NCBI RefSeq assembly: GCF_045037415.1
Contig: NZ_CP173440.1
Length of the DNA: 64,000 nt
Strand: one strand, 5' to 3'
Source: Escherichia coli
GTDB taxonomy: Bacteria; Pseudomonadota; Gammaproteobacteria; Enterobacterales; Enterobacteriaceae
Position 1 is the stretch's first letter, and each line of letters begins with the position of its first letter. The notes beneath the pieces were generated by a model that worked only from the letters and a program-made list of their open reading frames with translations, made no database searches and was not told the DNA's origin. Positions 10,445 through 28,529 of this stretch are shown here, in pieces. The position numbers and the translations under genes were made by a program.

Positions 10445-11264
10445 GGCACTGTTGCAAAGTTAGCGATGAGGCAGCCTTTTGTCTTATTCAAAGGCCTTAC
10501 ATTTCAAAAACTCTGCTTACCAGGCGCATTTCGCCCAGGGGATCACCATAATAAAATGCTGAGGCCTGGCCTTTGCGTAGTGCACGCATCACCTCAATAC
10601 CTTTGATGGTGGCGTAAGCCGTCTTCATGGATTTAAATCCCAGCGTGGCGCCGATTATCCGTTTCAGTTTGCCATGATCGCATTCAATCACGTTGTTCCG
10701 GTACTTAATCTGTCGGTGTTCAACGTCAGACGGGCACCGGCCTTCGCGTTTGAGCAGAGCAAGCGCGCGACCATAGGCGGGCGCTTTATCCGTGTTGATG
10801 AATCGCGGGATCTGCCACTTCTTCACGTTGTTGAGGATTTTACCCAGAAACCGGTATGCAGCTTTGCTGTTACGACGGGAGGAGAGATAAAAATCGACAG
10901 TGCGGCCCCGGCTGTCGACGGCCCGGTACAGATACGCCCAGCGGCCATTGACCTTCACGTAGGTTTCATCCATGTGCCACGGGCAAAGATCGGAAGGGTT
11001 ACGCCAGTACCAGCGCAGCCGTTTTTCCATTTCAGGCGCATAACGCTGAACCCAGCGGTAAATCGTGGAGTGATCGACATTCACTCCGCGTTCAGCCAGC
11101 ATCTCCTGCAGCTCACGGTAACTGATGCCGTATTTGCAGTACCAGCGTACGGCCCACAGAATGATGTCACGCTGAAAATGCCGGCCTTTGAATGGGTTCA
11201 TGTGCAGCTCCATCAGCAAAAGGGGATGATAAGTTTATCACCACCGACTATTTGCAACAGTGCC
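10445..11264 (-). mobile_element. IS26 copy 1 (820 bp, 14-bp IRs GGCACTGTTGCAAA)
   Basis: IRs at both ends; Tnp26 ORF inside. Confidence 0.95.
10497..11219 (-). CDS. tnp26: IS26 transposase Tnp26 (ORF-track frame; native 234-aa start is 6 codons downstream)
   Basis: [41 protein letters not shown]... Confidence 0.95.
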   Translation of the reverse strand: MLMELHMNPFKGRHFQRDIILWAVRWYCKYGISYRELQEMLAERGVNVDHSTIYRWVQRYAPEMEKRLRWYWRNPSDLCPWHMDETYVKVNGRWAYLYRAVDSRGRTVDFYLSSRRNSKAAYRFLGKILNNVKKWQIPRFINTDKAPAYGRALALLKREGRCPSDVEHRQIKYRNNVIECDHGKLKRIIGATLGFKSMKTAYATIKGIEVMRALRKGQASAFYYGDPLGEMRLVSRVFEM

Positions 11265-11330: not shown

Positions 11331-12146
11331 ATGAGCCATATTCAACGGGAAACGTCTTGCTCGAGGCCGCGATTAAATTCCAACATGGATGCTGATTTAT
11401 ATGGGTATAAATGGGCTCGCGATAATGTCGGGCAATCAGGTGCGACAATCTATCGATTGTATGGGAAGCCCGATGCGCCAGAGTTGTTTCTGAAACATGG
11501 CAAAGGTAGCGTTGCCAATGATGTTACAGATGAGATGGTCAGACTAAACTGGCTGACGGAATTTATGCCTCTTCCGACCATCAAGCATTTTATCCGTACT
11601 CCTGATGATGCATGGTTACTCACCACTGCGATCCCCGGGAAAACAGCATTCCAGGTATTAGAAGAATATCCTGATTCAGGTGAAAATATTGTTGATGCGC
11701 TGGCAGTGTTCCTGCGCCGGTTGCATTCGATTCCTGTTTGTAATTGTCCTTTTAACAGTGATCGCGTATTTCGTCTCGCTCAGGCGCAATCACGAATGAA
11801 TAACGGTTTGGTTGATGCGAGTGATTTTGATGACGAGCGTAATGGCTGGCCTGTTGAACAAGTCTGGAAAGAAATGCATAAGCTTTTGCCATTCTCACCG
11901 GATTCAGTCGTCACTCATGGTGATTTCTCACTTGATAACCTTATTTTTGACGAGGGGAAATTAATAGGTTGTATTGATGTTGGACGAGTCGGAATCGCAG
12001 ACCGATACCAGGATCTTGCCATCCTATGGAACTGCCTCGGTGAGTTTTCTCCTTCATTACAGAAACGGCTTTTTCAAAAATATGGTATTGATAATCCTGA
12101 TATGAATAAATTGCAGTTTCATTTGATGCTCGATGAGTTTTTCTAA
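11331..12146 (+). CDS. aph(3')-Ia: Aminoglycoside 3'-phosphotransferase APH(3')-Ia (kanamycin/neomycin resistance)
   Basis: 271-aa product MSHIQRETSCSRPRLNSNMDADLYGYKWARDNVGQSGATIYRLYGKPDAPELFLKHG... Confidence 0.95.
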   Translation: MSHIQRETSCSRPRLNSNMDADLYGYKWARDNVGQSGATIYRLYGKPDAPELFLKHGKGSVANDVTDEMVRLNWLTEFMPLPTIKHFIRTPDDAWLLTTAIPGKTAFQVLEEYPDSGENIVDALAVFLRRLHSIPVCNCPFNSDRVFRLAQAQSRMNNGLVDASDFDDERNGWPVEQVWKEMHKLLPFSPDSVVTHGDFSLDNLIFDEGKLIGCIDVGRVGIADRYQDLAILWNCLGEFSPSLQKRLFQKYGIDNPDMNKLQFHLMLDEFF

Positions 12147-12283: not shown

Positions 12284-13103
12284 GGCACTGTTGCAAAGTT
12301 AGCGATGAGGCAGCCTTTTGTCTTATTCAAAGGCCTTACATTTCAAAAACTCTGCTTACCAGGCGCATTTCGCCCAGGGGATCACCATAATAAAATGCTG
12401 AGGCCTGGCCTTTGCGTAGTGCACGCATCACCTCAATACCTTTGATGGTGGCGTAAGCCGTCTTCATGGATTTAAATCCCAGCGTGGCGCCGATTATCCG
12501 TTTCAGTTTGCCATGATCGCATTCAATCACGTTGTTCCGGTACTTAATCTGTCGGTGTTCAACGTCAGACGGGCACCGGCCTTCGCGTTTGAGCAGAGCA
12601 AGCGCGCGACCATAGGCGGGCGCTTTATCCGTGTTGATGAATCGCGGGATCTGCCACTTCTTCACGTTGTTGAGGATTTTACCCAGAAACCGGTATGCAG
12701 CTTTGCTGTTACGACGGGAGGAGAGATAAAAATCGACAGTGCGGCCCCGGCTGTCGACGGCCCGGTACAGATACGCCCAGCGGCCATTGACCTTCACGTA
12801 GGTTTCATCCATGTGCCACGGGCAAAGATCGGAAGGGTTACGCCAGTACCAGCGCAGCCGTTTTTCCATTTCAGGCGCATAACGCTGAACCCAGCGGTAA
12901 ATCGTGGAGTGATCGACATTCACTCCGCGTTCAGCCAGCATCTCCTGCAGCTCACGGTAACTGATGCCGTATTTGCAGTACCAGCGTACGGCCCACAGAA
13001 TGATGTCACGCTGAAAATGCCGGCCTTTGAATGGGTTCATGTGCAGCTCCATCAGCAAAAGGGGATGATAAGTTTATCACCACCGACTATTTGCAACAGT
13101 GCC
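12284..13103 (-). mobile_element. IS26 copy 2
   Basis: 820 bp with IRs; identical to copy 1. Confidence 0.95.
12336..13058 (-). CDS. tnp26: IS26 transposase Tnp26
   Basis: Identical 240-aa ORF-track product. Confidence 0.95.
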   Translation of the reverse strand: MLMELHMNPFKGRHFQRDIILWAVRWYCKYGISYRELQEMLAERGVNVDHSTIYRWVQRYAPEMEKRLRWYWRNPSDLCPWHMDETYVKVNGRWAYLYRAVDSRGRTVDFYLSSRRNSKAAYRFLGKILNNVKKWQIPRFINTDKAPAYGRALALLKREGRCPSDVEHRQIKYRNNVIECDHGKLKRIIGATLGFKSMKTAYATIKGIEVMRALRKGQASAFYYGDPLGEMRLVSRVFEM

Positions 13104-13433
13104 ATGCCGGTGAGCGCCCTGATCTGCTTCTGCACCTGTCCCGACGCCGACAGCGCCGAGCGCATCGCCACCGCGCTGGTGGCCGAGCGCCTGGCCGCCT
13201 GCGTCAACCTCCTGCCCGGCCTGCGTTCGGTCTATCGCTGGCAACGCAAGGTCGAGGCCGCGGCCGAGGTCCTGCTGCTGGTCAAGACCAGTGCCGAGGC
13301 CTACCCCGCCCTGCAGGAACGCCTGCGCCAACTGCATCCCTACGAACTCCCGGAGCTGCTCGCGGTCGAAGCCGCGTCCGGCCTGCCCGAATACCTGCAA
13401 TGGCTGGCCGCCGAGAGCCGACCGGTAAACTGA
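13104..13433 (+). CDS. cutA: Divalent-cation tolerance protein CutA, ATG directly abutting the IS26 end
   Basis: MPVSALICFCTCPDADSAERIATALVAERLAACVNLLPGLRSVYRWQRKVEAAAEVLLLVKT...HPYELPELL has the CutA signature; high GC. Confidence 0.85.
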   Translation: MPVSALICFCTCPDADSAERIATALVAERLAACVNLLPGLRSVYRWQRKVEAAAEVLLLVKTSAEAYPALQERLRQLHPYELPELLAVEAASGLPEYLQWLAAESRPVN

Positions 13434-13437
13434 GCCA

Positions 13438-14469
13438 ATGACCGCATCCACGATCCGCCTGCGCCGCTGGCTGGCCGGGCTCGCCCTGCTGCTTGCGCTG
13501 CCCGCGACCTCGGCCGTCGCCCAGGACTTCGAACTGCCGCCGGTCGACGAGGTCTTCGTCCTGTCCGCGCAGGCCACCGCGCCGGACCGCATCGAGGTGC
13601 GCTGGCGGATCGCCGACGGCTATTACCTGTACCGGCACCGCACCTCGGTCAAGGCCGATGCCGCCTTCACCGGCGCGACCATGGCGCTGCCGAAGGGCAA
13701 GGCCTACCGCGACGAATTCTTCGGCGACGTCGAAACCTACCGCAAGGAATTGCTCGGCACCCTCACCGGCACGCCCGCGGCCGGCGCGAGCGCGACCACC
13801 CTGACCGTGAAGTACCAGGGCTGCGCCGATGCCGGCGTGTGCTACCCGCCGCAGACCCGCACCCTGAAGGTCGCGTTGCCGGGCGAAGCGGGCGCTGGCG
13901 GCTTCGGCTGTAAGGCGCGCGGGCTGCATGATTATGTCGTCAAGAACGGCTCTGCCGATCATCCCAACGCCGAGGTGAAATTCGCACTGGGTGATGTGGT
14001 CAACACCATGATCGGCTGCACTAATGGTGAAACGATCATGCTGTGCCACGACACCTCGCTGCCGCGCCCCTATTCTCTCGGCTTTCGGGTGCAAGGCACC
14101 GAGGGGCTGTGGATGGACGTCAACAAGTCGATCTATCTGGAGGGCAAGAGCCCACAGCCGCACCGCTGGGAGCCTGCCGAGGGCTGGTTTGCGAAATACG
14201 ATCACCCGCTATGGAAACGCTACGCCGATCTGGCGGCAGGGGCCGGGCATGGCGGGATGGACTGGTTCGTGATCCACGCTTTTGTCGAGGCGCTGAAGGC
14301 CAAGGCCCCGATGCCAATCGACATTTACGACGCGCTGGCCTGGAGCGCGATCACGCCTCTGTCGGAACAATCGATTGCTGAGGGCAATCGCACGTTAGAT
14401 TTTCCCGACTTCACCCGAGGGCAGTGGCGCACCCGCAAGCCGATCTTTGCGCTGAACGACGCCTATTGA
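13438..14469 (+). CDS. dsbD: Fusion ORF: DsbD N-terminal domain joined in frame to the C-terminal part of a Gfo/Idh/MocA-like oxidoreductase (the 'tat'/'dsbC' ORF of blaNDM contexts)
   Basis: N-terminal half has DGYYLYR and TVKYQGCADAGVCYPP (nDsbD motifs); C-terminal half is unrelated to the DsbD membrane and thioredoxin domains; GC content drops near 13900. Confidence 0.65.
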   Translation: MTASTIRLRRWLAGLALLLALPATSAVAQDFELPPVDEVFVLSAQATAPDRIEVRWRIADGYYLYRHRTSVKADAAFTGATMALPKGKAYRDEFFGDVETYRKELLGTLTGTPAAGASATTLTVKYQGCADAGVCYPPQTRTLKVALPGEAGAGGFGCKARGLHDYVVKNGSADHPNAEVKFALGDVVNTMIGCTNGETIMLCHDTSLPRPYSLGFRVQGTEGLWMDVNKSIYLEGKSPQPHRWEPAEGWFAKYDHPLWKRYADLAAGAGHGGMDWFVIHAFVEALKAKAPMPIDIYDALAWSAITPLSEQSIAEGNRTLDFPDFTRGQWRTRKPIFALNDAY

Positions 14470-14479
14470 TCGACGCGAT

Positions 14480-15118
14480 TTAGGCCAAGCGCACCGCAAA
14501 GGCGAAATTGGTAATCTTGTCGGTATCCTTGACGCCCGGCGCGCTTTCGACGCCGCTGGAGGTATCGACCAGCGGCGCTCCGGTGCGCGCAATCGCCTCG
14601 GCAACATTCGTCGGATTTAGCCCGCCTGCCAGCCCCCACGGCAAGGCACCGCGATATCCGGCCAGCAGCGACCAGTCGAACGCCAACCCCATGCCGCCGG
14701 GCAGCGCGCCTTTGGGGGTCTTGGCGTCGAACAAGATCAAGTCCGCCGCCCCGGCATAGGCTGCGGCGCGTGCGACATCGCTGGCGCTGGCGACGGGCAG
14801 CGCCTTCCACACCGGCTTGCCAAACCGCGCGCGCAACTGGGCCACGCGTTCGGGCGATTCCGAACCGTGCAGCTGCAGCGCGTTCAGCTTGGCTGCCACC
14901 AGTGCGTCGGCGATGACAGCATCATCCGCATCGACGAACAAACCGACCATGGCGATCTGGCCAGCTGCGCGCGATGTCAAAGCGCCCGCGACATTCGACG
15001 TAACCGCACGGGGCGACGCTGGATAGAACACCAACCCGGCATAGTCCGCCCGCGCCGCGATGGTCGCATCGAGCGCCTCGGGTGTGCTGATCCCGCAAAT
15101 CTTGATTTTCGCGGGCAT
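14480..15118 (-). CDS. trpF: Phosphoribosylanthranilate isomerase TrpF
   Basis: 212-aa product MPAKIKICGISTPEALDATIAARADYAGLVFYPASPRAV... Confidence 0.9.
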   Translation of the reverse strand: MPAKIKICGISTPEALDATIAARADYAGLVFYPASPRAVTSNVAGALTSRAAGQIAMVGLFVDADDAVIADALVAAKLNALQLHGSESPERVAQLRARFGKPVWKALPVASASDVARAAAYAGAADLILFDAKTPKGALPGGMGLAFDWSLLAGYRGALPWGLAGGLNPTNVAEAIARTGAPLVDTSSGVESAPGVKDTDKITNFAFAVRLA

Positions 15119-15122
15119 GCGG

Positions 15123-15488
15123 TCAGTCGGGGTTCTGGATCAGCCGCACCAGCGTGCAGTCGGGATCGATCAGGTAGCCGATCCTCAGGCCGCTCGCCTC
15201 CAGTTGCGGAGCTTTGAAGCGCGGCCAGCCGGTGCTTTTTTCCTCGGCTCCCGCCGCGTTCACCAATGCCACCATGGCATCGAGATCATCCAACCGCAGG
15301 CAACAGCCGAACGAGCTCGTAGCTGGGTCGAGGTCAGGATAGGGGAAGAATTCGAGCTGCAAACCGCCGCGCTGCAGGATCATCCAGCCGCGATCCTTCC
15401 AACTCGTCGCAAAGCCCAGCTTCGCATAAAACGCCTCTGTCACATCGAAATCGCGCGATGGCAGATTGGGGGTGACGTGGTCAGCCAT
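15123..15488 (-). CDS. ble: Bleomycin-binding resistance protein BleMBL
   Basis: 121-aa glyoxalase/bleomycin-resistance fold protein immediately downstream of blaNDM. Confidence 0.9.
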   Translation of the reverse strand: MADHVTPNLPSRDFDVTEAFYAKLGFATSWKDRGWMILQRGGLQLEFFPYPDLDPATSSFGCCLRLDDLDAMVALVNAAGAEEKSTGWPRFKAPQLEASGLRIGYLIDPDCTLVRLIQNPD

Positions 15489-15491
15489 GGC

Positions 15492-16304
15492 TCAGCGCAG
15501 CTTGTCGGCCATGCGGGCCGTATGAGTGATTGCGGCGCGGCTATCGGGGGCGGAATGGCTCATCACGATCATGCTGGCCTTGGGGAACGCCGCACCAAAC
15601 GCGCGCGCTGACGCGGCGTAGTGCTCAGTGTCGGCATCACCGAGATTGCCGAGCGACTTGGCCTTGCTGTCCTTGATCAGGCAGCCACCAAAAGCGATGT
15701 CGGTGCCGTCGATCCCAACGGTGATATTGTCACTGGTGTGGCCGGGGCCGGGGTAAAATACCTTGAGCGGGCCAAAGTTGGGCGCGGTTGCTGGTTCGAC
15801 CCAGCCATTGGCGGCGAAAGTCAGGCTGTGTTGCGCCGCAACCATCCCCTCTTGCGGGGCAAGCTGGTTCGACAACGCATTGGCATAAGTCGCAATCCCC
15901 GCCGCATGCAGCGCGTCCATACCGCCCATCTTGTCCTGATGCGCGTGAGTCACCACCGCCAGCGCGACCGGCAGGTTGATCTCCTGCTTGATCCAGTTGA
16001 GGATCTGGGCGGTCTGGTCATCGGTCCAGGCGGTATCGACCACCAGCACGCGGCCGCCATCCCTGACGATCAAACCGTTGGAAGCGACTGCCCCGAAACC
16101 CGGCATGTCGAGATAGGAAGTGTGCTGCCAGACATTCGGTGCGAGCTGGCGGAAAACCAGATCGCCAAACCGTTGGTCGCCAGTTTCCATTTGCTGGCCA
16201 ATCGTCGGGCGGATTTCACCGGGCATGCACCCGCTCAGCATCAATGCAGCGGCTAATGCGGTGCTCAGCTTCGCGACCGGGTGCATAATATTGGGCAATT
16301 CCAT
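15492..16304 (-). CDS. blaNDM-1: New Delhi metallo-beta-lactamase NDM-1 (carbapenemase)
   Basis: [64 protein letters not shown]...MADKLR; diagnostic residues P28, V88, D95, D130, E152, M154, A233 are the NDM-1 states. The ORF-track entry carries one extra Met. Confidence 0.97.
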
Positions 16305-16379
16305 CAAGTTTTCCTTTTATTCAGCATTAAAAACCCCGCAAATGCGAGGCCTAGTAAATAGATGATCTTAATTTGGTTC

Positions 16380-16408
16380 ACTGTAGCAAAAATATGGGGC
16401 GAATTCAA
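16380..16408 (-). promoter_or_regulatory. blaNDM promoter: -35 TTGAAT (16403-16408) in the ISAba125 end, 17-bp spacer, -10 TACAGT (16380-16385)
   Basis: Hexamers read on the minus strand ~76-104 bp upstream of the blaNDM start. Confidence 0.65.
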
Positions 16409-16494
16409 ACATGAGGTGCGACAGTTTCAAAAGCCATATGATAATCAACAAGCTGAGCAAATTTCTCTAATGGTGTAAGCCAATCTAACGCCTT

Positions 16495-17630
16495 TCTAAA
16501 TAACTGATCCTAATACCGCTACACTTTAGCCAGCCCGTGTTTTCCACCGGGGAATGGGCTGACGGTATCCATAAAGTGATGAACCTTTTTCAACAGATGC
16601 CACATTGAACGGCACTGGTGATTTCGGGTTATTGTCTCATGAAGCGCCTGCCACAACCGTTCGACATGATTGACCCATGGCGAGTAAACCGGCTGATAAA
16701 TGACCCTGAACTTCTGGTTTGCTTTCAGCCAGCGCAACGTTTCACGACTTTTGTGGATAATGTAGTTATCGACAATGAGCGTAATCGTTTTTGCCCGCCG
16801 GTATGTCGCCTTAAGATGTTTTAACAGTCTGATAAATAAACATGAACCTTTACTGTTTCCACCTACGTAGCTGACTTTTCCCGTACCGCTGTGCAGCGCA
16901 CCGGCAAGATAGTACTTTTCATTCTGGCCCGGTGTGACAACACGTTTTTGCTGCCCGCGTAACTGCCAGTCAGCACCGATTTTCGGGTTGAGATGAATAT
17001 CCACTTCATCTTCGTAAAACACGGGATTTTCCGCACTGCATTTCGCCAGTGCTTCATGGATAGCAACCATTTTTTCTTCTTTGTGTGGGTCACGGATACG
17101 CAGTGTCGGCGCTGCTCTGCGCCATACCAGCCCGGCTGCAGGTAACCATCTCCGGATGGTTGAGGCATGTAGCGGACAACCGGTGACATCACGGATTTTT
17201 ATCGCCAGCAGTTCGGTACTCCAGCGGGAACGCTGATAACCGAAATCGCCGGGAGAATGCTTCACAAGCTCACGCAGCAATGCGCAAATATGTTCGAACG
17301 GCCAGCGCCTGCCACGTCCTGACGGTAATGACTTCAGGCCTTCAGCACCAGACAGAGTGAACCAGTTAATCCAGCGACCAATCGATGAGCGTGCACAGCA
17401 GAGTGTTCTGGCCACATGACTGACGCGCTCGCCCCGGTGCAACATCAGCATGGCGGTCAGTCTGCGGGCATAATTTTTATCGCGTGTTTTATGGATAGCT
17501 TTCTGCATCAGGCGTCGTTCGTCACGAGGTATTGGTGCTATGATCGACATCGCTCAGTCCGTTTGGTGATTTGTTTTGATTTGGCGATTGATCAGATCGC
17601 ACAATTCGGGCTGAGTTCCCTCAAAGTGAT
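16495..17630 (-). mobile_element. IS630-family element (ISEc33/IS630-like) inserted in ISAba125; ends approximate
   Basis: Contains a complete 343-aa IS630-type transposase; ISAba125 sequence resumes on both sides. Confidence 0.45.
16519..17550 (-). CDS. IS630-family transposase
   Basis: 343-aa product MSIIAPIPRDERRLMQKAIHKTRDKNYARRLTAMLMLHRGERVSHVARTL... Confidence 0.85.
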   Translation of the reverse strand: MSIIAPIPRDERRLMQKAIHKTRDKNYARRLTAMLMLHRGERVSHVARTLCCARSSIGRWINWFTLSGAEGLKSLPSGRGRRWPFEHICALLRELVKHSPGDFGYQRSRWSTELLAIKIRDVTGCPLHASTIRRWLPAAGLVWRRAAPTLRIRDPHKEEKMVAIHEALAKCSAENPVFYEDEVDIHLNPKIGADWQLRGQQKRVVTPGQNEKYYLAGALHSGTGKVSYVGGNSKGSCLFIRLLKHLKATYRRAKTITLIVDNYIIHKSRETLRWLKANQKFRVIYQPVYSPWVNHVERLWQALHETITRNHQCRSMWHLLKKVHHFMDTVSPFPGGKHGLAKV

Positions 17631-17646
17631 CTACTATTCTGCACAG

Positions 17647-18585
17647 CTATTTAGGACGAGTATTCAGTGACATGGCAACTTGATTTAAATAATGCTGATC
17701 TGCCTGATTTAAATCAATCCCTTTAGGTAAATATTGCCTAATTAAACCATTCATATTTTCGCATGTGCCTTTTTGCCAGGGTGAATGTGGGTCACAGAAA
17801 TATACATCTATGCCTAAATCTTCTTCGAGTATTTTATGTTCTGACATCTCACGTCCACGGTCATAGGTCAACGTTTTACGCAGTTCTGCAGGTAAATATT
17901 TCAGAGCTTCAGTTAAAGCCTTGCGCACTGATTCTGCCTTTGCATCAGGTAATGTTGCCAAGATACAGAGCCGTGTATTTCGTTCAATAAGTGTTGCTAT
18001 CGAACTTTTATTGTCTTTACCTTTAATTAAATCAGCTTCCCAATGACCCGGTATTTTTCTTTCTTGAACTTCGGCTGGGCGCTCATGAATAGTTTTAATA
18101 TCCTGTAATATAGAATCTTTTTTAGGTTCACCGTTAGCTTTTCGCTTTTTATTTTCATGACGTAGACAGGATAATAAGTCTTTTTTCAACTCACCCTTTG
18201 GTAATGCTCGTATCGTTGAATAAATCGTTGTATGGCTTACATTCATTGTTTGATCCAAATCAGGAAATGTCTTTAAACGCTTTGCTATTTGCTGAGGAGA
18301 CCATAAACAACGGATCGCTTCAACAATAAATTTCCAGAGGATTGAATCGATTTTGAGTTTTCTGTGACCACGTCTACGTCTAGCGAAGGTGTTATCAGAA
18401 GCATATCGAGCTTGATAAACGTCATTGATGCTATTTCTTTTAAGCTCACGATAGATCGTACTAGGATGTCTTTTAATGAGTTCAGCAAATTTTCTGGCTG
18501 AAAAGCCTTCTTTTCTTGACTCAAGCATTAATGCAGTACGATCTTCAAAGTTAAGATGATGGTATGACAATTTTATATACTCCAT
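17647..18585 (-). CDS. ISAba125 (IS30-family) transposase
   Basis: 312-aa product MEYIKLSYHHLNFEDRTALMLESRKEGFSARKFAELIKRHPSTIYREL... Confidence 0.85.
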   Translation of the reverse strand: MEYIKLSYHHLNFEDRTALMLESRKEGFSARKFAELIKRHPSTIYRELKRNSINDVYQARYASDNTFARRRRGHRKLKIDSILWKFIVEAIRCLWSPQQIAKRLKTFPDLDQTMNVSHTTIYSTIRALPKGELKKDLLSCLRHENKKRKANGEPKKDSILQDIKTIHERPAEVQERKIPGHWEADLIKGKDNKSSIATLIERNTRLCILATLPDAKAESVRKALTEALKYLPAELRKTLTYDRGREMSEHKILEEDLGIDVYFCDPHSPWQKGTCENMNGLIRQYLPKGIDLNQADQHYLNQVAMSLNTRPK

Positions 18586-18736
18586 AAACCCTTTAAATTA
18601 ATTAGGTGGTTTATGTCGCACTTCAAGTTTTACTCTGCCAACTTTAAATCAGTGGCTCCACTAACACTCTTCACTTATTTATTTAAAATTTAGCGACGTT
18701 AAAAGACAATTAAGTATTTTTAGATAATGCTTAGAA

Positions 18737-19516
18737 TCAATTCAATTCATCAAGTTTTAAAAAATAATTCCTTTTGTCAGGTCTATCATTTTTTAAATGC
18801 TTTAAAAATATTTTAGCAGTTTCCTCCGAGGCATCCTCTCTTAGGCAACGTTCAACAAAGGATATATCTACAAATTCATCAGCTAACCCAGCACGGCCAA
18901 GATCTAAAAAGTAAATTTCATTGAATTTATCTATAAAAATATTACTATCCGTGATATCGCCATGAGAAAAAACCAATCTTTCTTCAACACGAGTCTCAGT
19001 TAACTCATTCCATAGACTTAGGTAAGTTCTATGGTCTCCCCATAATTCAGCGTCAAAATCATCTTGATCTATATCGTCAAGGAGTTGGTTATCAATAAAA
19101 AATTTTGACTCTTTTAACCGATGATCAATGTTTGAAATAAATGGACAATCAATAATAGCAACTGAATTTAACAGATTGAGTGCCTCCTTATAGATAGCAA
19201 GCAATTCTTGGTCTGTTAAAAAAAGCGCTGAAATTGGTTTTGCATTGATCGCTTTAGTGATCATTAATTCAAACTGCTCATCCTGAAAAGTCATGATGAG
19301 TTCAGGCACCTTTAATTTCTCAGAGAGCCAACTCAACATTTTCGCTTCGCGAGAGACACTGTATGTGGTCTCTGTATATAAAGTGCTAGATCGCTTAAGA
19401 AAAAAAGTTTCATTATTTCGATTAAAAGAATAAACATCCGATGGCGACTGACCAATTTTATTTGGCTCTAAAACGCTGTTTCCAATAAATTGTTGAATAA
19501 TATTGGGCAATTCCAT
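18737..19516 (-). CDS. aph(3')-VI: Aminoglycoside 3'-phosphotransferase APH(3')-VI (amikacin/kanamycin resistance, aphA6)
   Basis: MELPNIIQQFIGNSVLEPNKIGQSPSDVYSFNRNNETFFLKRSSTLY...; shares its first six codons with blaNDM-1. Confidence 0.93.
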   Translation of the reverse strand: MELPNIIQQFIGNSVLEPNKIGQSPSDVYSFNRNNETFFLKRSSTLYTETTYSVSREAKMLSWLSEKLKVPELIMTFQDEQFELMITKAINAKPISALFLTDQELLAIYKEALNLLNSVAIIDCPFISNIDHRLKESKFFIDNQLLDDIDQDDFDAELWGDHRTYLSLWNELTETRVEERLVFSHGDITDSNIFIDKFNEIYFLDLGRAGLADEFVDISFVERCLREDASEETAKIFLKHLKNDRPDKRNYFLKLDELN

Positions 19517-19621
19517 CAAGTTTTCCTTTTATTCAGCATTAAAAACCCCGCAAATGCGAGAGAGGTGGTCCCACTTGTTTGAACAACTAAAAGCGTATTT
19601 ATAAGTGATATTCCGCTCTAG

Positions 19622-19864
19622 TTAAGCCACCTTGTTTTGTTGGGGTAGCTGATCATAGTAAAACTCATTTGGTGTCATTTTGTCTAGACTCGAATGAGGT
19701 CGTTTCAAATTATAAAACTCAAAATATGCACTTAATTGCTTTTTCGCATCTGTGACACTGCTATAAGCTTTGAGATACACCTCTTCATATTTAGGAGAGC
19801 ATGAAAAACCTCGGGGCAGCCATCGAATGATGCCATCTACAGGGGTTAAAATAACCACCATCAT
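19622..19864 (-). pseudogene. C-terminal fragment of an IS3-family transposase (ISAba14-like remnant)
   Basis: 80-aa ORF ending ...YFEFYNLKRPHSSLDKMTPNEFYYDQL, typical of an IS3 OrfB C-terminus; family assignment from context. Confidence 0.5.
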
Positions 19865-19886
19865 TTCATAACAATACCTGCTGACT

Positions 19887-20477
19887 ATGAAGATCTACGT
19901 CATCAAAATAGCAGTTCATGGAGTCAGTCCGATGGTCTGGCGTCGGCTGAGAATTGCTGCCGACACGTCACTGGCCGCGCTTCACTTCATTTTCCAGATA
20001 GTGCAGGGCTGGGGGGACGACCATCTCCATCAATTTCACATTTATGGCAAAGATTACGGTATCTCCTACGAAGGAGGCATCGGTTTTGTCGATAATCCGT
20101 TCCGGGTCGTGATTGATGATTTTGCTTTTGATGCTGGCGATCGCTTTACCTATGAATACAATTTCTTTGAGCACTGGCTTCATGACATTCGTGTTGAGGC
20201 CATTTATGAAAACTCTACGCTGAAAGCGCCGTTTTGTATAAGCGGCCATGGTATGCCCGGAGCCACAGCTGCGGATGAGTTCGATAAAACCCTGGCGTTT
20301 CTTGAAGCTATCGTTAATGCGGATGATGAAACAACGGTCGGCGAGATCCGCCCTTTTGCTGACGACCTGGATGCTGTCAGGTTCAACCGCCACAAAATCA
20401 ACCGGCAACTGAGCAGGCTCGACCTTGCATCTCCGGTACTGGAGCCTGAAGTTATCTGGCTGGGCCGTCGTCGCTGA
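19887..20477 (+). CDS. Hypothetical protein (pRiA4b ORF-3-like family), first ORF of the ISKpn19-like element
   Basis: 196-aa product MKIYVIKIAVHGVSPMVWRRLRIAADTSLAALHFIFQIVQGW... Confidence 0.45.
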   Translation: MKIYVIKIAVHGVSPMVWRRLRIAADTSLAALHFIFQIVQGWGDDHLHQFHIYGKDYGISYEGGIGFVDNPFRVVIDDFAFDAGDRFTYEYNFFEHWLHDIRVEAIYENSTLKAPFCISGHGMPGATAADEFDKTLAFLEAIVNADDETTVGEIRPFADDLDAVRFNRHKINRQLSRLDLASPVLEPEVIWLGRRR

Positions 20478-20613
20478 CTGATGTCTATAAAGGTATACGT
20501 TTTCAGCATGCCTCTCAGATCCCCGAAAAAATGTCTATAAACCTCCCTAAATCAGTGTTTATGGATTATTCTTTAAATCTCTATGATGTTTAAAGACCTT
20601 CCGGAGGTTTTGC

Positions 20614-21186
20614 GTGCAATATGCCTACATCAGGGTAAGCTCGGCCGATCAGAATACGGCCCGTCAGGAAGAGGCATTGTCAAAGGCGGGTTTTCAGCCT
20701 GATAAAATTTGTGTTGAGCATGCCAGCGCGAAGGACACAAACCGCCCGGGGTTACAGGAACTCCTGGGGCAATTACGCCCTGGTGATACGCTTCTGGTTC
20801 ATTCCATCGATCGCCTTTGCCGGAATATGTCGGATATGTGCGCTGTCACCACCCGGCTTCGTGACCAGGGCGTTACCCTTATTTTTCTGAAAGAGCAGCT
20901 GACGTTCAGCGCCGGCACAAACAATCCGATGCAGGAACTGCAGCTGCACATGATGTCGGCATTCAGCCAGTTTGAACGAGCCTTACTGAAGGAAAGGCAG
21001 GCCGACGGCATCGCCGCGAAAAAAGCACGGGGTGAAAAAACAGGGCGCCCCGGCGCCGATATCAAAAAGATCCAGGAAATTGACGCACTCAGAAGCAGAG
21101 GGGTCAGGCTCAGGATCGCCTGCGACCATGCGGGCCTTGGCGTTTCCACATATTATAAGCTTCGTCACCAGATGAACAACCAGTAG
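20614..21186 (+). CDS. Small serine recombinase (resolvase/invertase family) encoded inside the ISKpn19-like element
   Basis: N-terminal YIRVSSADQ serine-recombinase motif and C-terminal HTH. Confidence 0.6.
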   Translation: MQYAYIRVSSADQNTARQEEALSKAGFQPDKICVEHASAKDTNRPGLQELLGQLRPGDTLLVHSIDRLCRNMSDMCAVTTRLRDQGVTLIFLKEQLTFSAGTNNPMQELQLHMMSAFSQFERALLKERQADGIAAKKARGEKTGRPGADIKKIQEIDALRSRGVRLRIACDHAGLGVSTYYKLRHQMNNQ

Positions 21187-23075: not shown

Positions 23076-23393
23076 TTTGAACGGACGGAAAAATCTGGGG
23101 TTCCGGCGTAGTACCCCTATCACCTCCACATTTTTGCAACAGTGCCTTATAAATGGCAGCCTTATGTTTACTTGCCAAGATGGGCTACCATATGATGTTT
23201 TATACTGAGCAATATTAATATTATCTTTAATGGAAAAATTAAGCCCACTAAGTGACCCACTGCTATATGGCTCTATTGTGAAGACGCCTGAGGGTAAAAA
23301 TTTATACATGGTTGTCCCTATGTCTATTATTGCAAGGTTGACAATATTATTCGTTTTATAAATTTGAGCGTTTAAAATCACACATCAAAGCAA

Positions 23394-27709: not shown

Positions 27710-28529
27710 GGCACTGTTGCAAAGTTAGCGATGAGGCAGCCTTTTGTCTTATTCAAAGGCCTTACATTTCAAAAACTCTGCTTACCAGGCGCATTTCGCC
27801 CAGGGGATCACCATAATAAAATGCTGAGGCCTGGCCTTTGCGTAGTGCACGCATCACCTCAATACCTTTGATGGTGGCGTAAGCCGTCTTCATGGATTTA
27901 AATCCCAGCGTGGCGTTGATTATCCGTTTCAGTTTGCCATGATCGCATTCAATCACGTTGTTCCGGTACTTAATCTGTCGGTGTTCAACGTCAGACGGGC
28001 ACCGGCCTTCGCGTTTGAGCAGAGCAAGCGCGCGACCATAGGCGGGCGCTTTATCCGTGTTGATGAATCGCGGGATCTGCCACTTCTTCACGTTGTTGAG
28101 GATTTTACCCAGAAACCGGTATGCAGCTTTGCTGTTACGACGGGAGGAGAGATAAAAATCGACAGTGCGGCCCCGGCTGTCGACGGCCAGGTACAGATAC
28201 GCCCAGCGGCCATTGACCTTCACGTAGGTTTCATCCATGTGCCACGGGCAAAGATCGGAAGGGTTACGCCAGTACCAGCGCAGCCGTTTTTCCATTTCAG
28301 GCGCATAACGCTGAACCCAGCGGTAAATCGTGGAGTGATCGACATTCACTCCGCGTTCAGCCAGCATCTCCTGCAGCTCACGGTAACTGATGCCGTATTT
28401 GCAGTACCAGCGTACGGCCCACAGAATGATGTCACGCTGAAAATGCCGGCCTTTGAATGGGTTCATGTGCAGCTCCATCAGCAAAAGGGGATGATAAGTT
28501 TATCACCACCGACTATTTGCAACAGTGCC
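27710..28529 (-). mobile_element. IS26 copy 3, variant encoding Tnp26 with G184N and R93L
   Basis: 820 bp with IRs; nucleotide differences from the other copies are cag vs ccg at ~28189 and tt vs cc at ~27916-27917. Confidence 0.95.
27762..28484 (-). CDS. tnp26: IS26-variant transposase (G184N, R93L in the 234-aa numbering)
   Basis: Product has AYLYLAVDS and KRIINATLGF where the other four copies have AYLYRAVDS and [10 protein letters not shown]. Confidence 0.9.
   Translation of the reverse strand: MLMELHMNPFKGRHFQRDIILWAVRWYCKYGISYRELQEMLAERGVNVDHSTIYRWVQRYAPEMEKRLRWYWRNPSDLCPWHMDETYVKVNGRWAYLYLAVDSRGRTVDFYLSSRRNSKAAYRFLGKILNNVKKWQIPRFINTDKAPAYGRALALLKREGRCPSDVEHRQIKYRNNVIECDHGKLKRIINATLGFKSMKTAYATIKGIEVMRALRKGQASAFYYGDPLGEMRLVSRVFEM

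Follow-up and report, generated by a model that had tools for sequence, protein, structure and literature searches.

A dsbD-GH109 chimeric open reading frame beside blaNDM-1 in Escherichia coli, probably the relic of one illegitimate joint between two bacterial genes

We analysed a stretch of 64,000 nucleotides of Escherichia coli DNA (contig NZ_CP173440.1 of assembly GCF_045037415.1; the whole stretch is called the window hereafter) that carries blaNDM-1, and within it an open reading frame (ORF) of 343 amino acids (aa) with an ATG start, located at 13438..14469 on the + strand and named “dsbD”, “dsbC” or “tat” in the blaNDM literature. This ORF stands between cutA (13104..13433, + strand) and a full-length trpF (14480..15118, - strand) which converges on it across a 10-bp spacer; bleMBL (15123-15488) and blaNDM-1 (15492-16304), both on the - strand and recognised from their ORFs and from the annotation of matching plasmids, come next. 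The original prediction, made from the letters alone, described the ORF as an in-frame fusion of a DsbD N-terminal domain (nDsbD) with an oxidoreductase-like C-terminus. Its limits are exactly those predicted, and its two halves belong to two separate Pfam domains. With a probability of about 85%, we regard this ORF as a chimeric relic, i.e. the product of one illegitimate joint of two gene fragments from two bacteria, and not as a native gene. This reading is carried by the two-part make-up of the ORF, the exact breakpoint, an unfused left parent, the domains missing from both halves and the invariance of the joint in blaNDM contexts.

The dsbD-derived segment (13438..13909, + strand) corresponds to the first 472 nucleotides (nt) of a dsbD of Lysobacteraceae (Thermomonas-like) type; these 157 codons hold a signal peptide, the whole alpha domain and a piece of a Gly/Ala linker. 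A Pfam search of the 343-aa ORF placed DsbD_N (PF11412) on aa 32-145 (E=6e-30), i.e. on 13531..13872 (+ strand), which is a complete DsbD N-terminal (alpha, Ig-like) domain, and aa 33-145 align to solved structures of nDsbD (1L6P, 1JPE, 1VRS and others). Both motifs on which the prediction had leaned are present, DGYYLYR at aa 60-66 and YQGCADAGVCYPP at aa 126-138. The DEFFG cap-loop motif lies at 13711-13725 (+ strand), and the redox pair Cys129 (13822-13824) and Cys135 (13840-13842), on the same strand, aligns with the catalytic motif of E. coli nDsbD; the motif YQGCADAG-CYPP is conserved in the alignment with the E. coli nDsbD structures. The segment 13438..13521 (+ strand) encodes a probable Sec-type signal peptide, read from the sequence as inherited from dsbD (MTASTIRLRRWLAGLALLLALPATSAVA, with the predicted cut before QD): it has a positive n-region, a 12-residue hydrophobic core and A-V-A ahead of the predicted cut. 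Compared with DsbD (DipZ/CutA2), the ORF keeps the whole nDsbD, its Cys pair, its cap loop and the cutA-dsbD gene order, but only the first ~157 residues: it has neither the second N-terminal domain of the Lysobacteraceae parent nor the transmembrane and thioredoxin-like domains. The full-length DsbD model of NCBIfam (NF001419) accordingly gave 111 bits for a cut-off of 330, and only its positions 12-139 of 574 were matched. The alpha domain and Cys pair expected of a DsbD are thus there, while the beta and gamma domains and a full-length score are not.

The second half (13910..14469, + strand) is the 3' end of a GH109-type Gfo/Idh/MocA gene, 560 nt long (the last ~186 codons and the natural stop). 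The prediction of a Gfo/Idh/MocA-type C-terminal region was right and can be narrowed to the GH109 branch: Glyco_hydro_109_C (PF21252) matched aa 156-246 (E=8e-37, profile positions 92-186 of 187 only), and aa 155-343 aligned with the C-terminal residues 250-444 of the GH109 alpha-N-acetylgalactosaminidase 2IXA, which is 444 aa long (E=6e-67). The retained part (aa 156-343) is the last ~44% of a GH109-type Gfo/Idh/MocA protein. Over its 188 residues it shares 65-79% identity with the C-terminal ends of Gfo/Idh/MocA (GH109-like) proteins found across many phyla (75% for a Brevundimonas protein, the relative already reported in 2011). In a full-length homologue, both the Tat motif NRRNFLS and the Rossmann motif GLIGTGMRG lie upstream of the part retained here, and in the GH109 homologues the catalytic His motif LYP(S/T)HG stands ~27 residues before KARGLH, the first retained residues; in a characterised GH109 enzyme, activity is lost when the corresponding residue is mutated (H225A). 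Compared with the GH109 enzyme NagA (2IXA) and other Tat-exported Gfo/Idh/MocA proteins, the ORF is therefore missing four parts: the Tat signal, the Rossmann domain that binds NAD, the catalytic His and the opening half of the C-terminal domain. It cannot be counted as a complete GH109 protein. In agreement, the Pfam search of the ORF gave no match to PF01408 (Rossmann NAD(P)-binding domain), and Pfam and NCBIfam searches gave none to the Tat_signal family, no dedicated Tat predictor having been applied. At its N-terminus the ORF carries the signal peptide of dsbD itself (RLRRWLAG...), which is not of the Tat type. The product name “TAT signal” is misleading because it was inherited from the full-length relatives.

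The domain search of each half thus confirms that the two halves are unrelated and that no single family spans the ORF; one that did would have refuted the prediction. A genuine two-domain family, or an assembly artefact of the window, would have in its favour the open reading frame itself and nothing further. The database proteins that combine PF11412 and PF21252 are all the blaNDM-linked sequence, mostly at 99-100% identity (one E. coli fragment at 73% probably represents a copy with a frameshift), native relatives of each half occur with other partners, and identical DNA occurs in thousands of independently finished plasmids. The combined-domain search, the plasmid copies and the unfused relative described below refute this explanation, and we consider it practically out of the question.

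The joint itself was placed by comparing codons between the window, the unfused dsbD relative (contig L002, below) and six GH109 homologues. The native dsbD reads GGC TTC GGC T/TC GGC AAG, the window GGC TTC GGC T/GT AAG GCG, and the six homologues AGC TTC GCC AGC AAG GCG. Since the match with L002 stops at 13909, this comparison puts the crossover between 13909 and 13910, within a new Cys158 codon (T/GT; joint region 13903..13911, + strand). The sequences around it share imperfect microhomology (CTTCGGCT in dsbD, CTTCGCCA in the GH109 homologues). RefSeq, which annotates the DNA of the ORF as two partial pseudogenes, begins the right-hand fragment at the base equivalent to 13903, and its boundaries agree with the joint. 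The joint happened to be in frame, so that gene callers report a single ORF of 343 aa.

A change of base composition accompanies the joint. The predicted GC drop near 13900 is found: GC is 0.70-0.72 over 13100-13900, then 0.585-0.63 over 13900-14500. At third codon positions (GC3) the difference is sharper, with 146 of 157 codons (0.93) ending in G or C in the dsbD part and 140 of 186 (0.75) in the GH109 part (Fisher p=8.7e-6). On the left of the joint cutA has a GC3 of 0.86; on its right the GH109 part (0.753), trpF (0.779), ble (0.754) and blaNDM (0.753) have nearly the same value. The GH109 fragment, trpF, ble and blaNDM-1 form one compositional block, and a single origin of this right block is what we infer.

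On the left side an unfused parent was found. Searching for protein homologues of the dsbD half brought up a protein of 246 aa with 95% identity in an ENA wastewater metagenome; the search was limited by protein length, and this protein surfaced only because a stop codon shortens its ORF. It is encoded on L002 (ENA ERZ965164 / ERR2607425, wastewater), a contig of 2254 bp on which the N-terminal part of groEL and groES, in one direction, are followed by cutA and dsbD in the other; its dsbD is not fused and runs on through the Gly/Ala linker into a second DsbD_N-like domain. By blastn, positions 860-1671 of L002 match window positions 13104-13909 at 98.2% nt identity; the match begins exactly at the first base of cutA, whose identification rests on its ORF, its translation, this 98% match and plasmid annotation, and ends at 13909. 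When compared with the blaNDM plasmids of PLSDB, L002 1-1671 is 99.0% identical and the match always ends at 1671; the L002 sequence past 1671 occurs in no PLSDB plasmid. L002 and the window differ by a 6-nt indel in the dsbD linker tract, by 3 nonsynonymous and 3 synonymous changes in the dsbD part and by 3 nonsynonymous and 0 synonymous changes in cutA, which are too few for a dN/dS estimate.

The part of the L002 DsbD beyond the joint has its best relatives in Thermomonas spp. and other Lysobacteraceae (~70% aa, genome scan). As the identity in this post-joint linker is only ~70% aa, the donor species is not among the GTDB r220 representatives. The arrangement of groEL and groES facing away from cutA and dsbD is conserved in the chromosomes of Thermomonas and other Lysobacteraceae, where cutA is the native upstream neighbour of dsbD; identity to the blaNDM-linked copies reaches 98% for GroES and 80% for nDsbD. 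A more complete segment from a blaNDM plasmid forms a single collinear block with Thermomonas chromosomes (83-86% nt), from ~175 nt past the groEL stop to the joint; on this segment a truncated ISCR27 transposase gene, encoded by the same strand as groEL, lies 189 nt downstream of it. The left block is thus one uninterrupted piece of a Lysobacteraceae chromosome, with ISCR27 at one end and the joint at the other, and its donor appears, by sequence affinity, to be a Thermomonas-like member of this family.

A second allele of the same region was seen in a contig of 835 bp (ENA ERZ15184836; L092). It carries cutA-dsbD at 96% and, at the equivalent of window position 13878, 31 bp short of the blaNDM joint, passes into sequence resembling an ABC permease; its coverage is 0.3x. 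It may be an independent truncation in the Gly/Ala-rich linker, which would then possibly be a hot spot of recombination, or a chimera from assembly at low coverage.

On the right side, the GH109 fragment and the convergent trpF both finish at natural stops, 10 bp apart. The closest non-NDM relatives of trpF are from Sphingomonadales (Novosphingobium, Croceicoccus, Altericroceibacterium; 70-76% aa). The best GH109 homologue (79% aa) lies on a metagenomic contig of 1372 bp (JGI 3300036970) with a convergent trpF 4 bp away and a pyrF-like C-terminus upstream of trpF, an arrangement that mirrors the blaNDM module; its trpF is only 49% identical to that of the module. Among the contexts of seven GH109 homologues this is the one with a convergent trpF, the other six being without. 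The GH109 gene was likely a native neighbour of trpF in the source of blaNDM.

We also considered that both halves could come from a single donor genome in which an internal deletion joined dsbD to a GH109-like gene, since Lysobacteraceae also encode GH109-like proteins (67-73% aa to the C-terminal half for two of them). This would not account for the fall of GC3 from 0.93 to 0.75 at the joint, the lower value being common to trpF, ble and blaNDM, nor for a neighbouring trpF, 10 bp from the fragment, that resembles those of Sphingomonadales and not those of Lysobacteraceae. Moreover the Thermomonas collinearity stops at the joint, and no GH109-like gene was recorded in the Lysobacteraceae dsbD loci, compared over the groEL-groES-cutA-dsbD block. 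A single donor is therefore very improbable, and an origin of the two halves from two bacteria is preferred.

The joint is the same wherever the module was met. The segment 13000-15200 is found at 100% identity and with the same neighbours in many plasmids (Klebsiella, Escherichia, Enterobacter and others). Of 600 matching E. coli records 589, all with this joint, match over 80% or more of the query, and in 599 the identity is at least 99%; at least 1615 plasmid records hold the same DNA at an identity of at least 99%. The ORF is, by gene order (blaNDM-ble-trpF-[ORF]-cutA) and by sequence, part of the blaNDM module. It occurs without a difference of sequence in the Tn125-type context (blaNDM-bleMBL-trpF-dsbD-cutA-groES-groEL-ISCR27), where the literature names it as one gene and RefSeq as two partial pseudogenes. 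These comparisons qualify the “ancient” recombination joint of the original prediction: the joint is old insofar as it is common to blaNDM contexts and predates all sequenced ones, but in evolutionary terms it is recent, the dsbD side being 98-99% identical to a present-day wastewater sequence.

Among 7014 blaNDM contigs, complete copies were counted for ble in 6863, trpF in 6038, dsbD in 5551, cutA in 2731, groS in 2175 and groL in 1631 (Acman et al. 2022). This steady fall of retention with distance from blaNDM is the pattern that we would expect of hitch-hiking DNA. The chimerism was already implicit in public annotation, and the ORF is the known “dsbD/tat” passenger beside blaNDM: a table published in 2011 for pNDM-1_Dok01 lists a coding sequence of 1032 nt of which 141 of 188 aa match a Brevundimonas protein. 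In a full-text literature search, to which key subscription papers were out of reach, no paper on the fusion was found, nor any linking Thermomonas to blaNDM or ISCR27. Our additions are incremental, and some of them may have been published before: the breakpoint to the base, a left-parent relative at 98-99% that is free of the fusion, the affinity of the ISCR27 cargo (Thermomonas-like rather than Xanthomonas- or Pseudoxanthomonas-like) and, by composition and synteny, the attribution of the GH109 fragment to the blaNDM side.

The module has a parallel at its other end. The aphA6-blaNDM 5' chimera is likewise an in-frame junction that arose when the module was assembled out of unrelated DNA, the first six codons of NDM matching aphA6 (Acman et al. 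2022). That fusion, however, gives a working enzyme and a promoter context, whereas the dsbD-GH109 fusion joins two incomplete genes and its product is only predicted.

What this product could do is limited by what it lacks. As the prediction had suspected, it should be unable to act as DsbD: it has neither a membrane beta domain nor, for receiving electrons, a thioredoxin gamma domain. It should be equally unable to act as a glycosidase or oxidoreductase, having no NAD-binding domain and no catalytic His. At most it would be a secreted or periplasmic orphan nDsbD with a tail unlikely to fold; judged from its sequence, a working enzyme is very unlikely.

In the window the blaNDM-linked DNA is bounded on the left by IS26 (12284..13103, - strand), recognised by its terminal inverted repeats (GGCACTGTTGCAAA at 12284 and TTTGCAACAGTGCC at 13090-13103) and its transposase ORF (12336..13058, - strand). 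Its right inverted repeat abuts the ATG of cutA at 13104. Relative to the Tn125-type context, IS26 thus cuts the module just before cutA, and groES, groEL, ISCR27 and the native upstream region of the cutA-dsbD pair have been removed. This IS26 is the right copy of IS26-aph(3')-Ia-IS26, with the left IS26 at 10445-11264 and aph(3')-Ia at 11331-12146; the segment 10445-13103 is a Tn4352-like unit. Further IS26 inverted repeats were seen at 27710, 35953 and 42843, and a lone repeat at 23133. Upstream of blaNDM-1, the best plasmid matches to window 16300-21000 carry annotations for an ISSpu2 transposase (IS630-like) and for an APH(3')-VI gene; this is a Klebsiella-type blaNDM-1 context with a disrupted ISAba125 region. 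A promoter and terminator scan of 12950-14650 gave no + strand sigma-70-like promoter and no terminator.

How the two fragments came together is suggested by the geometry of the left block. IS91-like and ISCR elements reportedly move by one-ended rolling-circle transposition. The donor segment lies beside the 5' (terIS) side of the ISCR27 transposase gene and ends inside dsbD, ISCR27 itself being absent from the window. The succession of ISCR27, an intact donor segment and an arbitrary end within a gene is what a one-ended transposition would produce, which favours a capture by ISCR27. In the sequence of events that we propose, ISCR27, located beside (downstream of) groEL in a Thermomonas-like donor, would have read through by rolling circle into groEL-groES-cutA and stopped 472 nt into dsbD; the resulting ISCR27 unit would have inserted in a GH109-like gene next to trpF in a blaNDM-bearing organism; a second read-through would then have exported ISCR27 with both blocks, blaNDM included, onward to Acinetobacter and Tn125. 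The hypothesis that ISCR27 mobilised blaNDM is already current (Acman et al. 2022). We put the rolling-circle step, as read from this layout, at even odds.

A wider picture may be drawn, tentatively, the odds being slightly against it as a whole. The joint would be the scar of the first ISCR27 capture, and GH109'-trpF-ble-blaNDM would be contiguous chromosome of the progenitor, probably a Sphingomonadales-like alphaproteobacterium in which blaNDM-ble occupied the variable slot between pyrF and trpF and a Tat-exported GH109-like gene converged on trpF. The donor of ISCR27 would be a Thermomonas-like Lysobacteraceae, 99% identical to the wastewater contig, rather than the usually cited Xanthomonas or Pseudoxanthomonas.

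Several observations weigh against this account, or against the relic itself. The first concern the right parent. Its unfused form was not recovered: the protein search gave nothing above 79% aa, among proteins of up to ~1.75 times the query length, a limit that may hide full-length parents. Scans of JGI metagenome DNA for the GH109 side without the fused T at 13909 gave 0 matches with an exact 26-mer and 0 with a wobble-degenerate query over S-KARGLHDYVVKNG. Two loci from the Sphingomonadales whose trpF is closest read pyrF-[variable small genes]-trpF-trpB-trpA, with no GH109 gene after trpF; compared with them, the module has blaNDM-ble in the position of the variable slot and the convergent GH109 fragment in place of trpB. 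Because trpB, and not GH109, follows the closest trpFs, a further, unseen joint may separate the GH109 fragment from trpF. On the left side, codon 247 of the L002 dsbD is an in-frame TAG (1932-1934) where the relatives have GAG; L002 may therefore be a mobile or decaying copy instead of the donor chromosome, or the stop may be a sequencing error. No donor chromosome bearing ISCR27 was found.

At the joint itself we saw no ISCR/IS91 termination signature or target motif but only the imperfect microhomology, which fits any illegitimate recombination. The ISCR27 end point could accordingly be replaced by an ordinary illegitimate (microhomology-mediated) recombination or deletion, for instance during the co-integration of a plasmid or chromosome. 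The microhomology at the crossover (CTTCG-C), the absence of an IS91-type motif and the repetitive GC-rich tract that codes for the Gly/Ala linker of dsbD (GGCTTCGGCTTCGGC), where L002 and the window differ by their indel, would all suit such an event, as would the second, independent break of the 96% allele 31 bp upstream, provided that L092, with its 835 bp at 0.3x, is not a chimeric assembly. Yet the geometry, an uninterrupted donor segment that adjoins the ISCR27 transposase gene on its 5' side and runs to an arbitrary end inside a gene, matches one-ended ISCR transposition. We consider an ordinary recombination a real contender, though on balance rather unlikely.

The last point concerns function: the nDsbD is intact, with its predicted signal peptide, its cap loop and both cysteines. 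DsbD domains are able to work as separate polypeptides, and when separately expressed they are said to cooperate, which would make a trans-acting role possible. The product could then be a functional neo-protein, i.e. a secreted nDsbD reduced in trans by the DsbD of the host, serving in periplasmic disulfide isomerisation, in cytochrome c maturation or, with cutA, in copper tolerance, and kept by selection; the native cutA-dsbD gene pair and an ORF uninterrupted in thousands of copies would agree with this. But the copies are at least 99% identical and only decades old, so that their intactness carries no weight, and the retention of the gene declines with distance from blaNDM. Moreover IS26 took the native upstream region and the scan left the + strand without a sigma-70-like promoter, the tail of 186 residues is a partial domain unlikely to fold, and the host has its own nDsbD. 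Selection for such a protein seems to us improbable, and a chimeric relic remains the preferred reading of the ORF.

If the ORF is such a relic, the “dsbD”, “dsbC” or “tat” of hundreds of blaNDM papers denotes an accidental fusion, and not a disulfide reductase, a component of the Tat pathway or an oxidoreductase. The joint gives a sharp boundary between the Lysobacteraceae-derived cargo of ISCR27 and the DNA that came with blaNDM from its source. With the joint as the boundary between the two blocks, the GH109 fragment lies outermost in what survives of the progenitor locus and is usable as a search handle; this handle has been in public data since 2011, and in tracing the progenitor of blaNDM it is a marker of modest value. 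Were the wider picture true, the arrangement of a GH109-like gene converging on trpF, with blaNDM-ble in the pyrF/trpF slot, would provide both a synteny and a sequence signature with which the progenitor of blaNDM could be found.

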